From assembly GCA_005223125.1 (NCBI GenBank), contig NJBH01000001.1, forward strand, positions 96,001 to 160,000: a stretch of DNA of 64,000 nt, read 5' to 3'. Shown in pieces: positions 30,133 through 35,592 of the stretch. A program made the translations under genes and the position numbers. This DNA is from Promethearchaeota archaeon Loki_b32 (GTDB taxonomy: Archaea > Asgardarchaeota > Lokiarchaeia > Sigyniarchaeales > SOKP01). A model generated the notes under the pieces. The model saw only the letters and a program-made list of their open reading frames with translations, searched no databases and was not told the origin of the DNA. Each line of letters begins with the position of its first letter. Positions within the stretch are counted from its first letter, which is position 1.

Positions 30133-31026
30133 TTGTACTTGAGAGAGTGTATAATGCAACTATTTAACATTAGTGATAAGGGAGAATTAATAAAGATAGA
30201 TAAGTTAAATTTTGAGGAAGATGATGTTTATCTTGTTGACGATGGGGAAAAGAATACGATTTATATTTGGGTTGGATTGAAAGTACCTCAGAATAAAAAA
30301 GACATTACTGCCGACATTGCAAGAAAATTGGATAAAGAACGAGGTGGATCTGCTAAAATTCTCATAATGAAACAAAAAAGAGAATATGGTTCTTTTTTAG
30401 CGATGATGCATGATCTTAAAAAGGGATTGATACCGGGTAAAACTATTGAACGAAGACCAGAATTCGTGTTTGAAATACCTCCCGAAAGTATCAAATCTAT
30501 AGGACTTGATGGAACTCCAGAAGAGAGAGAAATCAAGATTGAAACAAGAATAGGACAATGGCTTCAGCAAATTAAAGATTATAGAAGGGTTGAACCACAA
30601 AAAAAACTGCAAGAAACTTCAGATGCTGTAAAATTCATTAAGTTTAAAGAATCTCCAGATAAAGTAGAAGTAAATGGTAAATCAGAATTAGAAGCACGGT
30701 TAAAACAAACTGAAGAACGTAGAAAACTTGAACCTGAAGTTGTAGAGTTAAAGCCAGAAGAGCCTGACTTAAAAACACAAGTCAAAGAAACTGCATATTA
30801 CTTATCACTGGATAGATACTCATACAATGAATTGTGTTGGATGTTGGCTGAAAAAATCCAGAAAATGAACATTGATATGCCATCAATCGCAGATATAAAA
30901 AAAAAAGCGGAAGAAGTCTTCAATTCAAGCTGTACATATGATGAACTCTGTTGGTTAAATGCAGAAATGGATATATTGATCGAAAAAAGCTTTCTCGAAA
31001 AGGAAAAGAAGGAATTTAATTATTAA
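30133..31026 (+). CDS. Gelsolin-domain protein with C-terminal helical 'domain X' (1DGelX-type architecture; likely start ATG at 30154)
   Basis: Gelsolin repeat signature DDVYLVD...IYIWVG...ARKLD.ER.G...Q..E...F, followed by a twice-repeated AYY/AEE...Y(N/D)ELCW..AE motif. Confidence 0.82.
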   Translation: MYLRECIMQLFNISDKGELIKIDKLNFEEDDVYLVDDGEKNTIYIWVGLKVPQNKKDITADIARKLDKERGGSAKILIMKQKREYGSFLAMMHDLKKGLIPGKTIERRPEFVFEIPPESIKSIGLDGTPEEREIKIETRIGQWLQQIKDYRRVEPQKKLQETSDAVKFIKFKESPDKVEVNGKSELEARLKQTEERRKLEPEVVELKPEEPDLKTQVKETAYYLSLDRYSYNELCWMLAEKIQKMNIDMPSIADIKKKAEEVFNSSCTYDELCWLNAEMDILIEKSFLEKEKKEFNY

Positions 31027-31056
31027 AAAATATAAATTTAAAATTTTTGACTATTT

Positions 31057-31362
31057 TTATCCACAACAACTATTGTTTTGAGGATTTTTAGCAACATATC
31101 GTGCATTCCATAAACATCCACATCCTTTTTTCTCTTGTAAAACAATTGCCATTGTTGGACAATTTCGTTTGCAAGCAGAACATTCTGTACAGCGTTCTGC
31201 TTCATAAATTTCGTATGTTCCGCCATCATTTTGTATAGGGATTCCAAATGGGCATACCTCACCACATATCCCACACCCTGTGCATAAATCAGGATTGATG
31301 AAAATTTTAGGAATGACTACTGACATCCTTATTTCTGTGGTTTTTGACGCTATTTTTACCAC
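31057..31362 (-). CDS. hgcB: HgcB-like 2[4Fe-4S] ferredoxin
   Basis: CTGCGICGEVCP and CTECSACKRNCP, then GCGC and a C-terminal vicinal CC (SCCG); lies directly downstream of the hgcA-like gene. Confidence 0.8.
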   Translation of the reverse strand: MVKIASKTTEIRMSVVIPKIFINPDLCTGCGICGEVCPFGIPIQNDGGTYEIYEAERCTECSACKRNCPTMAIVLQEKKGCGCLWNARYVAKNPQNNSCCG

Positions 31363-31419
31363 CTCATTTTTATTCTCTTATTTAATAATAGTTTTTATTC
31401 TTATTTATTTTATTTTTTT

Positions 31420-33108
31420 CTAAAATATTAGGTAAAAAATAATACCTATAGCTAAGGTTATTAGGCTAATTATCAATACAATCATATTGATTTTACTAAA
31501 ACTGGGATATTCATCTTGGATTTCACTTGGACTTGTTGCCATAGTATATCCACTATATGACATTGTAGAGAAGAATGCTAACCAAAAGTAAAAGCAAGAG
31601 CTCAACAGAAGAAAGGGTATTGACCCATGAAAAAGCCAAGAAACACTACTTAATAGGAAAACATTAATAGTACCATAAATTAACCCTTTTGTAATAAATT
31701 TGCGAGTGAAATTAGTGATAGGAAAGATTACCATTATTATTGCATTTGTTATTATAATCCAGAGCCAGATCTCACCCACTAACCACAATTTGTTCATATC
31801 TATAGTGTTAAAGAGAGCTAAACCGAGTAAAATTAAAAATAATACAAAACTTGGCATTAAAAATATTTTTCGTATTAAAAAAGTTGTATGCGTTATTGCT
31901 GCTCTTAAACGATGAGAGGCAGTAAATTTTGCCAATTTCATTTTGTCGGTTTTTCTAGCAGGTCTTTCTTTTAAGAACTTGGGCAAATGTTTTGCCCATA
32001 TAGGACCATATAAAACATTAAAAGGAAAGTCAGGAGCCTCACTTTTTAATACTGGTACTGCTATTCCTCCTGCAGCAAGTTGAGGTAAAATTATAGTTTT
32101 CTTTTTCGTAATTTTAGCAATACCCGTAGCTCCTACCGCTTCTATTAATTGTTTGTTCCCAAAATTATCTCCCCGTGCTGCACACCATACATTTATACCT
32201 TTAGAATCAACACATAATACCCAAGCATCTATTCCTTTAAGAGAACGCATAACTTTAATATATGTATAAAGATAATTAGCAGTTACTATAATAGGAGACT
32301 TTTCATCAGGTGTTCCAGATTGATAAATGCCTGGTTCAATTGGTACGTGATCTACTTGTCCTGTAAAAATACAGCGATAGATGCTCATTTGAGATCTAAA
32401 TCCTTTAAATTTTCTAAGACTAGGGCGGTAGTATCCTGGTTCTTTTAAATTTTCATCCTCTACCTTTTTTAATTCAATTACTTGAATAGATCCATGACTC
32501 CATTTTTTTTCTGCTACCATCTTAAAACCTATAGGTTCTAAATAATTGAAAAACCACTTTACTAGAAAAGTACTTTCTAATCGTAGTCTTCTTAATTTTT
32601 TTCTGTACCTCCACCGCTTTATGTTAAATAAAATTTTCCAAATACCTGAAGGAACAAATTCAGCTGCTAAAATCATCCGACCATTCGGTTTCAAAGTTTT
32701 CCATGCATTTCTTAGAAAGACCTGTTGTTCAAATGGCCTAAGTTCTGAAAGCATAAAAGTACTAACAATTAGATCTTTAGAACTATCTTCTACGGGTAGA
32801 TCGCTGATGGAACCTATTTGATATAGAAGTTTTGTACGTTCTTCAGAAGGATAATTTTTCATGGCAGTATTTATCATTTGTAAGTTTTTATCTATTGCAA
32901 GAACATTATTTCCTTTTAAAGCCATTTTTTTAGCAAGAGTTCCTGTCCCACATCCTACTTCTAAGATAATCTGTGGTGCTTTTATCCTTTCTAGTACCCA
33001 ATCATGAACTTTGATATTTGTACCTTTAGTAAGTGCTGTGAATTTTGATTCATATGTTTCTGGTTCTAATTCCAACTTTCTCATATAGACTACAGCGATT
33101 TTAATCAC
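31420..33108 (-). CDS. hgcA: Class I SAM methyltransferase fused to an HgcA-like corrinoid-binding + transmembrane protein
   Basis: The N-terminal ~215 aa have ILEVGCGTG, IVSTFMLSEL and LKPNG. They are followed by PGIY..G.PDEKSPIIVTANY, cap helix GINVWCAARG, LPQLAAGG and YGPI.A..LP.FL. The C-terminal TM bundle ends in MSYSGYTMATSPSEI, like HgcA MNFTG.T..TS.SGV. Confidence 0.82.
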   Translation of the reverse strand: MIKIAVVYMRKLELEPETYESKFTALTKGTNIKVHDWVLERIKAPQIILEVGCGTGTLAKKMALKGNNVLAIDKNLQMINTAMKNYPSEERTKLLYQIGSISDLPVEDSSKDLIVSTFMLSELRPFEQQVFLRNAWKTLKPNGRMILAAEFVPSGIWKILFNIKRWRYRKKLRRLRLESTFLVKWFFNYLEPIGFKMVAEKKWSHGSIQVIELKKVEDENLKEPGYYRPSLRKFKGFRSQMSIYRCIFTGQVDHVPIEPGIYQSGTPDEKSPIIVTANYLYTYIKVMRSLKGIDAWVLCVDSKGINVWCAARGDNFGNKQLIEAVGATGIAKITKKKTIILPQLAAGGIAVPVLKSEAPDFPFNVLYGPIWAKHLPKFLKERPARKTDKMKLAKFTASHRLRAAITHTTFLIRKIFLMPSFVLFLILLGLALFNTIDMNKLWLVGEIWLWIIITNAIIMVIFPITNFTRKFITKGLIYGTINVFLLSSVSWLFHGSIPFLLLSSCFYFWLAFFSTMSYSGYTMATSPSEIQDEYPSFSKINMIVLIISLITLAIGIIFYLIF

Positions 33109-33202
33109 GCCTTTTTATTGTATTTTTTATTGATTGTAAATTAAAAAAAAATAAATATTTATATCTTATAATTTTTAATTTAGATTTAATTGATATATTT
33201 CC

Positions 33203-33238
33203 CTTTAACAACAACCTTCTTTTGATTCCTCATCATCA
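33203..33238. repeat. 36-bp direct repeat, copy 1 (encodes DDEESKEGCC-stop on the minus strand)
   Basis: ctttaacaacaaccttcttttgattcctcatcatca is 35/36 identical to 34090..34125. Confidence 0.9.
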
Positions 33239-33326
33239 TGTTAATATTTATCTCTTCTTTTTGGGGGGATTCAAAATTCAGTGAAATAACCTCATAAAGT
33301 AATTTAGGCAATTTATTAATAATTGT

Positions 33327-33914
33327 TTATTTCTGAAGCAGTTTTGTTGCATTTAGAATGTTAAATCCAAGAATTTCTGCTTGTTTTAACTGGTTTTCTT
33401 GGTTTAAAATATCGCCTGGTTTGTCAGCTACAGCTTTTACCCCAAATAAATCACCTGGAACACATATAATTCCACATGAGAGCATCCATGTATAAATGGC
33501 ATTAAGTGTTATTGTTTGACCTCCCGTTGTTCCACCACCAACCGCAATAGCTCCACCTACTCTCCCTTCTAAAGGTTTTTCGACATCTACCGCAAAGTGT
33601 CTATCAAGTAAGGAGAGTAATTGAGCACTAACATTTAGGAAATAAACAGGACTTGAGATTATAATCGCATTACACCATCGAAACGCATCATAAATTCCTT
33701 GCATATCATCATTAATAACACAAGTACCCGTTTCCCTACATGAGTCGCAGGCATTACAAGGTTTAATTTCTAATTCGCTTAAAAGAAAAATTTTAACATT
33801 CCATCCATTATTTTCAAAAGGTTTTAGAGCATACCTTAAGAGGATTTCACTATTCCCTTTCTTCCTTGGAGTCCCTGATATACCAATAACATTCATTTTT
33901 TTTTTTGAACTCAA
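33327..33914 (-). CDS. Flavodoxin-like iron-sulfur flavoprotein (Isf / NADPH-dependent FMN reductase family)
   Basis: GTPRKKGNS, Isf Cys motif CNACDSC.....C, SPVYF. Confidence 0.88.
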   Translation of the reverse strand: MSSKKKMNVIGISGTPRKKGNSEILLRYALKPFENNGWNVKIFLLSELEIKPCNACDSCRETGTCVINDDMQGIYDAFRWCNAIIISSPVYFLNVSAQLLSLLDRHFAVDVEKPLEGRVGGAIAVGGGTTGGQTITLNAIYTWMLSCGIICVPGDLFGVKAVADKPGDILNQENQLKQAEILGFNILNATKLLQK

Positions 33915-34089
33915 TAATAATTTTGTTAATAGATTATTTTACAAATAATATTTTTTTGATTGCAGTTTTTCTACAAATTGTATTTACTAACTTTTGTATC
34001 CAATCTGTATTTTTTATTGAAATAAAACTGAAAAAAATAAAAATTTTGATCTTATAAATTTTAATATAACCTTAAAGTGAATTCTTTTA

Positions 34090-34125
34090 CTTTAACAACA
34101 CCCTTCTTTTGATTCCTCATCATCA
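34090..34125. repeat. 36-bp direct repeat, copy 2
   Basis: ctttaacaacacccttcttttgattcctcatcatca; the single mismatch to copy 1 is synonymous (GGG/GGT). Confidence 0.9.
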
Positions 34126-34169
34126 CTTTTTGTTTCTTCAGTACAACATTCTTTATCTTTATCTCCCAT
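34092..34169 (-). CDS. Unannotated 25-aa acidic Cys-Cys micropeptide (putative metal-binding)
   Basis: MGDKDKECCTEETKSDDEESKEGCC-stop, with a GAGGT SD 8 nt upstream and its own BRE/TATA plus palindromic operator. Confidence 0.7.
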   Translation of the reverse strand: MGDKDKECCTEETKSDDEESKEGCC

Positions 34170-34209
34170 ATGTAATTACCTCTTTGTTTAAAATTTAATT
34201 TTTAATTAT

Positions 34210-34227
34210 TAGTTAGGTTCCTAACTA
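34210..34227. promoter_or_regulatory. Palindromic operator 1 (putative MarR site)
   Basis: TAGTTAGG-TT-CCTAACTA, abutting a minus-strand CGAAACA-TTTAAATA BRE/TATA-like element upstream of the micropeptide. Confidence 0.78.
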
Positions 34228-34299
34228 TTTAAATGTTTCGTTCCGTATAATTAAGCTCCTAACAAAGATTTAGAGAGATGATAATCTCGCGTAAAACTA

Positions 34300-34764
34300 T
34301 TAGGGTTTTAGTGCGTTTAACAATTTTTGGAGTAATTCTCCCAATATTATGATCTCTTCTTGTTTAATTCCAGGACAACAACCGTTTACAATCGTTTCTA
34401 AAGGAGGGGTAACATTTTTTAAATCTTTCCCTTTTTTTGTAAGCTTAACGAAGAGACTTCTTCTATCGTGAGGATTCGATTCACGAGAGACTAATTTTTT
34501 CTTTTCCATTGTGTCTACCACACCTGTAATTGTAGATCTAGAACAATTACATGTCTCTGCTAAATCTTTAAATTGTTGACTATCAACGCTCCATAATTCC
34601 CTCAGAATGAAATGTTGAGTTGGTGTAAGCTCTAATTCTTGAATATTATCACGTTCCAATTTTTCGTATTTTTTGCTTAAAATATTTATAAGTTCAAAAA
34701 CATCAACAATCTCTTTGGGTTGACAGCAATTATTAGGGGATTCGGGGGTTTTATCTCTACTCAT
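34300..34764 (-). CDS. MarR-family transcriptional regulator with vicinal cysteine pairs
   Basis: LTPTQHFIL, SRSTITGVVDTMEKKKLV.R...DRRS..V.LT.KG. The Cys motifs are NNCCQ, CNC and GCCP. Confidence 0.92.
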   Translation of the reverse strand: MSRDKTPESPNNCCQPKEIVDVFELINILSKKYEKLERDNIQELELTPTQHFILRELWSVDSQQFKDLAETCNCSRSTITGVVDTMEKKKLVSRESNPHDRRSLFVKLTKKGKDLKNVTPPLETIVNGCCPGIKQEEIIILGELLQKLLNALKP

Positions 34765-34806
34765 TTTTTTTTCAGATGATTAGGGTTTTTTTTAATTTTT
34801 AATTAT

Positions 34807-34824
34807 TAGTTAGGTTCCTAACTA
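34807..34824. promoter_or_regulatory. Palindromic operator 2 (putative MarR autoregulatory site)
   Basis: Identical TAGTTAGG-TT-CCTAACTA, abutting a minus-strand TTTATATA box upstream of marR. Confidence 0.8.
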
Positions 34825-35010
34825 TATAAAATTATTTGAAATTTCCACTTGATAAATGATAAATTTTTTTATTTTCCATAAATTAACCTGGAAATTTTAT
34901 TATTTAATAAAATAAAAGAAATATGCTTATATTGGATAATTAGTTAATTTTAAATATTCTTTTTTTTTGTCAATACATAAAAATAATATTCAAAAAAAGA
35001 GGTAATCTAG

Positions 35011-35592
35011 ATGGAAAGTAATAATGATTTGAGTGAGAAACAATATTGGAAGGATGTTATAAAAAAACATCAAAGTGCATTTATAGTATTAATAGTAGCA
35101 GGCGTTTGCGTAATTGTAGGAGCTTTTTTAGTATTGTTTTGGGTTATAGAGATAAATCCCTTCGTCAATCCACGTACAGGTACCTTTGACGATTGGACAC
35201 TAAATTATATCGTTGGCATTACTATTCTTACAATTTTATCGGAGTTGCTATTTGTAGGTATTCCAACAGGAATATTTTTTGTCTTAGGAGGATATTTATA
35301 TTGGCGTAAATTACCTGAAGAAGAAAAGCAAGAATTCAAGGATAGAGAGAAGAAAAAGACTCATAGAAAAAAAGAATACGGCGGGGGCGGTGGTTTTAGC
35401 TTCTTTATGTTTATAGCTTATTGTATTTATATTGCTGTCGACGGAAATTACAATGCAACTTTTGGTAGCCAACCATTTAGTTATTGGATTTATTCATGGC
35501 TCTTAACTCTAATGTGGATATTCATAGTATTTGGTATTCCCATAGGAATTCTACTTATTTCATACTATATATACAAATGGAGAAAAAAATAG
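35011..35592 (+). CDS. Hypothetical four-TM membrane protein with a poly-Gly linker
   Basis: GAGGT SD, four hydrophobic segments, and a charged loop ending in GGGGG. Confidence 0.75.
   Translation: MESNNDLSEKQYWKDVIKKHQSAFIVLIVAGVCVIVGAFLVLFWVIEINPFVNPRTGTFDDWTLNYIVGITILTILSELLFVGIPTGIFFVLGGYLYWRKLPEEEKQEFKDREKKKTHRKKEYGGGGGFSFFMFIAYCIYIAVDGNYNATFGSQPFSYWIYSWLLTLMWIFIVFGIPIGILLISYYIYKWRKK

Follow-up and report, generated by a model that had tools for sequence, protein, structure and literature searches.

The HgcAB family makes neurotoxic methylmercury, and its native function is an open question, as was its methyl donor until 2024. Bona fide HgcAB takes the methyl group from S-adenosylmethionine (SAM; PMC11588087). 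In Pseudodesulfovibrio mercurii ND132 the two genes are co-transcribed with an ArsR-like regulator, and bacterial hgcAB is linked to arsR, acr3 and arsM and stands under an ArsR-like regulator (PMC7438021; bioRxiv 10.1101/2022.10.17.512643). MarR genes occur upstream of hgcA in two bacteria, and a different, TA-type regulator has been proposed for archaea (PMC10349881). Lin et al. found Asgard sequences in a fused-HgcAB subtree, of which the one tested member, P. furiosus, does not methylate Hg (PMC10083202); acr3 and arsM are documented in Asgard archaea (PMC10060404). Here we describe a locus of Promethearchaeota archaeon Loki_b32 (GCA_005223125.1, contig NJBH01000001.1, positions 96,001-160,000 of the forward strand; this 64-kb stretch is called the window, and its coordinates are used throughout), in which a SAM methyltransferase (MTase) fused to an HgcA-like protein lies next to a MarR-family regulator and a cysteine-rich micropeptide. 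A literature search found no paper on MTase-HgcA fusions, on the corrinoid protein-associated methyltransferase CpaM or on the MarR-peptide unit, and the PNAS paper of 2024 does not mention the fusions.

Positions 31057-34832 hold five genes in the same orientation, for the MarR regulator, the micropeptide, an iron-sulfur flavoprotein (Isf), the MTase::HgcA-like fusion and an HgcB-like ferredoxin. The original prediction had seen here a single inducible regulon of five co-oriented genes with recurrent Cys pairs, a decayed peptide copy and two identical operators. All five genes do lie on the minus strand, and the Cys pairs (NNCCQ and GCCP in MarR, two CC in the peptide and a C-terminal SCCG in HgcB), the start-less peptide relic and a perfect 16-bp palindrome at both the marR and the peptide promoter are present. 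The gaps between genes, given as 130-220 bp, amount to 130, ~177-195 and ~218 nt, and that between hgcA and hgcB to 57 nt only. A single regulon is not supported: the operator is confined to the marR and peptide promoters, MTase::hgcA is preceded by a T-run and a separate promoter-like stretch, marR and peptide occur without the enzyme genes in three genomes, and most relatives have the enzyme pair but neither marR nor peptide. A reading as two modules fits the locus better, marR with the CC...CC peptide and the MTase::HgcA-like with the HgcB-like protein, and we regard it as moderately probable that these adjacent modules both deal with thiol-binding metal(loid)s. The locus appears to combine a new variant of a sensor-plus-thiol-peptide logic with a distinct, MTase-fused branch of HgcAB, whose context in Lokiarchaeia is that of arsenic detoxification and whose function is predicted.

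The fusion (31420-33108, minus strand) is a protein of 562 aa with matches to Pfam Methyltransf_11/25 and CdhD. Residues 1-215 form a CpaM-like class I SAM methyltransferase, residues ~255-392 a HgcA-type corrinoid domain with the cap helix GINVWCAARG (codon of Cys309 at 32182-32184), and residues 397-561 five transmembrane (TM) helices. The CdhD-like corrinoid-binding domain (PF03599) reaches 49.2 bits at residues 241-346 (cut-off 24.8). An AlphaFold2 (AF2) model based on a 95-sequence alignment is confident as one rigid assembly (predicted local distance difference test, pLDDT, 95.5; predicted template modelling score 0.92) and comprises a Rossmann MTase, the corrinoid domain, the cap helix at 307-312 and, as in HgcA, five TM helices (397-432, 438-465, 471-494, 497-521 and 527-561, all with pLDDT >88). 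The best match of the C-terminal part among PDB folds is the HgcAB model 9a0b_A.

In its profile scores the protein stays under all curated cut-offs of the described families. It reaches 172.0 bits with HgcA (NF040863, cut-off 275) and 172.8 bits with the HgcAB_like fusion (NF043039, cut-off 285), a model that also requires HgcA and HgcB in one chain, whereas HgcB in the window is a separate gene 57 nt downstream. The CpaM model (NF043040) is aligned over its whole length (positions 2-215 of 216, fusion residues 6-214) at 135.4 bits (cut-off 180), and here the domain is one part of a fusion and no stand-alone protein. The HgcA cap-helix motif N(V/I)WCA(A/G)GK is replaced by GINVWCAARG, in which the Co-ligating Cys is kept and the GK is lost. 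This variant is invariant in the fusions of Loki- and Thorarchaeota and in the 16 close homologs that were aligned. More than 590 close homologs share the same fusion, belong to Asgard archaea wherever the source is named, and carry no annotation beyond "methyltransferase domain-containing protein". In a set of 1.84 billion cluster representatives, all MTase-fused forms lack the Lys of NVWCAAGK, which nearly all unfused HgcA representatives (50+) possess; more broadly, all MTase-associated HgcA-type forms, whether fused or beside CpaM, lack the GK of the motif. The standard hgcA motif filters (AAGK) would overlook the whole MTase-fused branch.

A quick maximum-likelihood tree of the HgcA domain (115 rows) recovers classical HgcA as one clade with an approximate likelihood ratio test (SH-aLRT) value of 100. 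The fusions of Loki- and Thorarchaeota, the bacterial fusions and the HgcAB-like proteins beside stand-alone CpaM all fall outside this clade, and the HgcAB-like proteins nest among the MTase-fused forms. The placement of the window protein agrees with Lin et al. (PMC10083202), and the protein earlier labelled "HgcA" lies beyond the classical methylator clade and, like its HgcB partner, stays under the curated cut-off. Judged from profiles and tree, the nearest catalogued relatives of the enzyme pair are the uncharacterised CpaM and HgcAB-like ("fused HgcAB") families. They consist of the same three parts, a class I SAM MTase, a HgcA-type corrinoid/TM protein and a HgcB-type ferredoxin, but differ in the fusion point: MTase::HgcA with a separate HgcB in the window, a separate CpaM with HgcA::HgcB in the catalogued families. 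With HgcA and HgcB of ND132 the window proteins share the Cys-on corrinoid cap helix, the five TM helices and a dicluster ferredoxin with terminal CC, as well as the linkage to metal(loid) regulators and ars genes (PMC7438021; 10.1101/2022.10.17.512643) and, as proposed for the window, SAM as methyl donor (PMC11588087). They differ in the fused MTase, in NVWCAARG and CTECSAC, in their separate clade, in a MarR instead of an ArsR regulator, and in the micropeptide. Since SAM donates the methyl group in true HgcAB (PMC11588087), the association with an MTase is meaningful, and the natural fusion is genomic "Rosetta-stone" evidence for the SAM-to-corrinoid step.

The HgcB-like ferredoxin (31057-31362, minus strand; Fer4 families, predicted 2x[4Fe-4S]) has the layout of HgcB, with two CX2CX2CX3CP motifs (CTGCGICGEVCP and CTECSACKRNCP), a following KGCGC and a terminal SCCG. 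It scores 52.8 bits with the curated HgcB model (NF040864, cut-off 99) and carries CTECSAC in place of C(M/I)ECGAC. Its gene follows immediately on the fusion gene in practically all of the 80+ loci. The 12 residues before Met13 (31327-31362) are conserved in orthologs, with tblastn alignments beginning at residue 1, and a GAGGTG ribosome-binding site overlaps the opening GTG, with an ATA 6 nt downstream of it. The conserved residues together with this overlap suggest a non-ATG start of the gene.

The gene context of the enzyme was compared among 54 loci of the window's family. Of the 301 Asgard genomes, 135 contain the fusion; this family contributes 58 of its 68 genomes and the genus all of its 21. 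Roughly half of the 54 loci have a compact operon in which the enzyme genes come after ACR3, the gene for the arsenite pump; they read ArsR< (DUF166>) ACR3> MTase::HgcA> HgcB> c8> c11> (ArsC>) YdjM>, with alignment gaps of ~40-70 nt. Family searches confirmed ACR3, an ArsR/SmtB regulator with a CVC site and a thioredoxin-type ArsC in these ars-type loci, and in two cases (L017, L113) a bona fide ArsM (347 bits, cut-off 263) stands between ACR3 and the fusion. In most of the Thorarchaeota loci examined, a co-oriented arsR abuts a fusion of 30% identity. Because the enzyme sits in arsenic-export operons in related species, it probably acts on arsenic-like elements. The earlier suggestion that the native substrate may be arsenic rather than Hg thereby gains independent support from gene context, both from the ACR3/ArsR/ArsM operons and from a MarR paralog in front of arsM (see below).

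The arrangement in the window is a derived one. Its clade branches within the ArsR/ACR3-type loci of the tree, so that the location between the flanking genes, with MarR, arose secondarily. These flanking genes encode a 193-aa multi-pass membrane protein (TM193, 35011-35592, plus strand) and a gelsolin-domain protein (30133-31026, plus strand). They enclose the cluster in every window-type relative, even where marR is missing, and are a conserved backbone that received the modules. The own genome has ArsR/ACR3/c8/c11 clusters elsewhere, without the enzyme pair.

The regulator gene of the other module, marR (34300-34764, minus strand), encodes 154 aa with a winged-helix MarR domain (PF01047) above the gathering score (58.8 bits, cut-off 24.6), which establishes membership in the MarR family; no NCBIfam equivalog was reached. 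Its Cys pairs are located at residues 13-14 (NNCCQ) and 129-130 (NGCCPG), in addition to a CNC in the helix-turn-helix region. The NGCCP is kept in all orthologs, and a conserved (N/D)xCC(P/G/E)G motif is the signature of the subfamily. Vicinal Cys pairs are ligands of As(III) and other soft metals. A sister group of this CC-motif subfamily, with 47-57% identity, lies directly upstream of arsM in 6-7 loci, and one such MarR in the own genome (G000 C37:119894-119394), 57% identical to the window MarR, precedes two arsM genes. In the locus L006 of a relative, the peptide is preceded not by MarR but by a divergently oriented ArsR that has a CVC site. From this exchange of ArsR for MarR and the arsM context of the paralog we infer a metal(loid), most simply arsenic, as the signal. 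The paralog itself carries YCCSQ and KDCCGG motifs, and its region (C37:117289-119894, outside the window) continues with the two arsM genes in tandem and then three small DsrE/F/H-like open reading frames.

The micropeptide (34092-34169, minus strand) is acidic and only 25 aa long, with two vicinal Cys pairs in the spacing CC-x13-CC (MGDKDKECCTEETKSDDEESKEGCC). Every MarR-type locus contains it (12 loci, corresponding to 11 species-level genomes), as do L006, L192, L193 and L194, and the orthologs measure 25-38 aa with 2-3 CC pairs. The four core Cys are invariant in 12 orthologs, and the mean proportion of synonymous differences (pS, 0.45) exceeds that of nonsynonymous ones (pN, 0.21; pN/pS ~0.5). 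We interpret this substitution pattern as that of a conserved coding gene, which supports the CC micropeptide of the earlier prediction. A comparison of synteny, which had been proposed as a check, recovers the order marR-peptide-MTase::hgcA-hgcB in 11 species-level genomes of the genus. The marR-peptide pair is nevertheless self-contained and stands alone in three related genomes: in G008 the order is TM193< MarR> peptide> Isf> followed by unrelated genes, with the fusion gene of that genome located after ACR3, and in G222 and G132 marR and peptide are found by themselves.

A 40-nt repeat at 34194-34233 and 34791-34830 (39/40 identical) contains the palindrome AGTTAGG-AA-CCTAACT, which abuts the TATA boxes of the marR and peptide genes only. 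In the marR promoter (34791-34830, minus strand) a TATA-like TTTATATA (34823-34830) adjoins the perfect palindromic operator AGTTAGGAACCTAACT (34808-34823). The peptide promoter (34194-34262, minus strand) begins with an imperfect upstream half-palindrome TTAGGAGCTTAA (34251-34262). After it come a CGAAAC resembling a transcription factor B recognition element, a TATA box at 34226-34233 (TTTAAATA), the perfect operator at 34211-34226 and, as ribosome-binding site, GAGGT. The perfect palindrome occurs in two copies in the 4.13-Mb genome, both at this locus; in a genome-wide search, matches with up to two mismatches were no commoner than those of a control pattern, and no wider MarR regulon is visible. 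The peptide promoter is conserved in 11 MarR-type relatives and in the stand-alone loci L193 and L194, each with CGAAAC, TATA, GTTAGGnnCCTAAC and an imperfect second site upstream. By contrast, the marR promoters of the relatives carry a different, wider-spaced site, TAAGGA-N13-TCCTAAC, and a peptide-type promoter in front of marR was seen only in the window, which implies that the marR promoter of the window is a recent, window-specific promoter duplication.

The module recalls the logic of SmtB-SmtA and ArsR/ArsD, in which a Cys-based repressor and a small Cys-rich product are combined with an operator overlapping the promoter, control and metal binding being proposed for the window. It differs in that the repressor belongs to the MarR and not the ArsR/SmtB family, and in that the peptide has only 25 aa, four Cys and no homology to metallothioneins or ArsD. 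If our reading is correct, the MarR-micropeptide unit is a candidate for a new class of metal(loid) sensor with a minimal Cys-pair peptide, both of a size that suits simple in vitro assays.

The spacer between the peptide gene and MTase::hgcA is conserved in relatives, where it measures 114-183 nt. It holds a T8-9 run after the peptide gene, and ~25 nt ahead of the conserved start region there is a promoter-like stretch rich in A and T. In the window this region has been affected by a duplication: a segment of ~120 nt at 33119-33238 is ~80% identical to 34006-34125. The source copy (34006-34125, minus strand) covers the 3' end of the peptide gene and the downstream intergenic DNA, with the terminator-like T-run and the A/T-rich promoter-like stretch. 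The decayed duplicate (33119-33240, minus strand) contains the last 11 peptide codons (33205-33240), which read HDDEESKEGCC-stop, are preceded by a stop codon and have no start codon, as well as the conserved intergenic segment before MTase::hgcA. In relatives without Isf, the spacer between peptide and MTase::hgcA aligns with it. The T-run lies at about 34040-34055 in the source copy and at about 33150-33165 in the duplicate. There is no support here for a riboswitch or attenuator, as an Rfam scan of 30900-35100 gave no match at E up to 1 and the duplicated leader folds no better than shuffles (z = -1.5).

The duplication accompanied the insertion of Isf in the window (33327-33914, minus strand; likely start ATG at 33896). 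Its FMN_red domain (PF03358) scores 101.5 bits, and the motif CX2CX2CX5C (CNACDSCRETGTC) was read from the sequence. This fold together with the compact CX2CX2CX4-7C cluster motif, which we take to be the definition of Isf iron-sulfur flavoproteins, makes the protein Isf-type. It shares the FMN_red/flavodoxin-like fold and the compact motif with the Isf of Methanosarcina thermophila, but matched no family-specific model. A candidate assignment as ArsH was rejected, as there is no ArsH match in NCBIfam. Isf occupies this position in only 6 of ~57 loci (the window, L006, L095, L097, L102 and L192). It is a variable, sporadic insertion; the earlier prediction had counted it among the parts of one inducible system.

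On these grounds we propose the following mechanism. MarR would act as a repressor whose operator lies between the TATA box and the transcription start of both marR and the peptide gene. Binding of a soft metal(loid) such as As(III) to the conserved Cys pairs may release MarR from the DNA, upon which the acidic 25-aa peptide would be made as a small buffer or chaperone. In the enzyme module, the fused class I MTase would transfer a methyl group from SAM to the Cys-ligated corrinoid of the HgcA-like membrane domain, from which a thiol-bound metal(loid) would receive it, in all likelihood arsenic or one of its chemical neighbours. The low-potential electrons for the regeneration of Co(I) may come from HgcB and, in loci that have it, Isf.

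Several observations weigh against this reading. The conserved spacer before MTase::hgcA contains no palindrome, and because there is no operator near the MTase::hgcA promoter and the T8-9 run after the peptide gene is conserved, a co-regulation of the two modules is unproven. ArsR/SmtB regulators with a CVC site sense Cd and Zn too. The MTase domain lacks the As-binding cysteines of ArsM; as a candidate ArsM-like enzyme it was rejected, with 43.2 bits in NF008823 (cut-off 263) and C53, within the SAM motif, as the only invariant Cys in residues 1-215. Related genomes, moreover, are not independent samples. The fusion is also 65-80% identical across the family, which would equally suit a housekeeping role, and in three further Asgard families (f24, f14 and f17) ars genes were not detected around the fusion with Loki and Thor queries.

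The last two points are shared by the alternative that the fusion owes its position in ars operons to history and performs a housekeeping corrinoid-dependent methyl transfer or a dehalogenation that has nothing to do with metal(loid)s. The very high conservation and near-universal presence of the fusion in the family and the ars-free contexts in the other families would fit, and a preprint reports halomethane dechlorination by HgcAB (bioRxiv 10.64898/2026.04.26.720869). We consider this alternative unlikely, however, as the genes of the operon are closely packed, with ACR3 on one side and small Cys-rich proteins on the other, a regulator is associated repeatedly and in three different arrangements (as a divergent arsR in Loki, as a co-oriented one in Thor, or as marR), and the fused SAM methyltransferase points to methylation instead of dehalogenation.

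Alternatively, the cluster could be a redox or oxidative-stress unit that protects the oxygen-sensitive corrinoid/Fe-S enzyme, with MarR as an OhrR-like sensor of thiol oxidation, Isf reducing O2 and H2O2, and the peptide as a sacrificial thiol. OhrR indeed belongs to the top NCBIfam matches of MarR (2.2e-12), MarR has its N- and C-terminal Cys in positions that recall 2-Cys OhrR, Isf-family proteins reduce O2 and H2O2, and marR, peptide and Isf stand alone together in G008. Nevertheless, most marR-peptide loci lack Isf, an ArsR replaces MarR before the peptide in L006, the sister MarR group sits upstream of arsM, and vicinal CC pairs would suit chelation better than peroxide sensing, which makes such a unit quite improbable.

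That the locus is instead a genuine mercury-methylation locus, in which methylation of Hg(II) would be the relevant activity of the fusion and HgcB, and Hg the signal for MarR and the peptide, is very unlikely: the HgcA/HgcB architecture is kept (Co-ligating cap-helix Cys, five TM helices, two [4Fe-4S] motifs, mid Cys, C-terminal CC), an HgcAB model is the best PDB fold match and SAM is the donor of true HgcAB (PMC11588087), yet the protein has NVWCAARG for NVWCAAGK, stays, with its HgcB partner, below the cut-offs of NF040863 and NF040864, is placed apart from the classical clade, which is well supported (SH-aLRT 100), comes from Asgard archaea, whose sequences Lin et al. put with the fused-HgcAB clade, of which the tested member P. 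furiosus showed no Hg methylation (PMC10083202), and is neighboured in relatives by arsenic genes and not by mer genes.

Returning to the metal(loid) reading, a more specific version can be put forward, although we hold it only tentatively and think it rather doubtful in full. Lokiarchaeia may use a SAM- and B12-dependent membrane enzyme of the HgcAB type as an anaerobic methylase of As (or Sb) distinct from ArsM, which in one genus was uncoupled from ArsR/ACR3 and set beside a new MarR-family arsenic sensor controlling a 25-aa arsenic-binding peptide with two Cys pairs. If so, the HgcAB family would have had arsenic-type metalloids as its ancestral substrate. Since the fusion is embedded in Asgard arsenic operons, defined genes are at hand for a direct test of the arsenic hypothesis.

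Two uncatalogued proteins encoded after HgcB in the ars-type operons belong to no family found in Pfam or NCBIfam searches. The first, c8, has ~90 aa (L017:8744-9130, L108:9138-9407; in the own genome C28:323-529, C24:227791-227994 and C32:59719-59928). Its AF2 model (pLDDT 93.7) predicts a thioredoxin-like fold with an invariant CxC at the position of the thioredoxin active site, and fold matches are only weak (E ~4e-3). Some copies have an N-terminal extension with CC-x4-5-CC repeats, which resembles the window micropeptide and the N-terminus of ArsM. The second, c11, follows c8, has ~115 aa and ends in ...QLQPDVGC or ...IVHAD (L017:9171-9521; in the own genome C32:56538-57342 and C24:226648-227655).

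A second system is present in 20 of 71 genomes of the family, in which a stand-alone CpaM (230-258 bits, above the cut-off) lies directly upstream of an HgcAB-like fusion of ~365 aa (L165, L168, L170-L173; e.g., G177:C99:10047-11512). No ars genes were found in the ~1.5-kb flanks of these pairs, and the own genome lacks this system. Finally, a DGC-domain/GcvH-like protein recurs near MTase::HgcA fusions, both in a Loki lineage and in bacterial (Chloroflexota-like) loci (L015:9959-10834, L035, L036).

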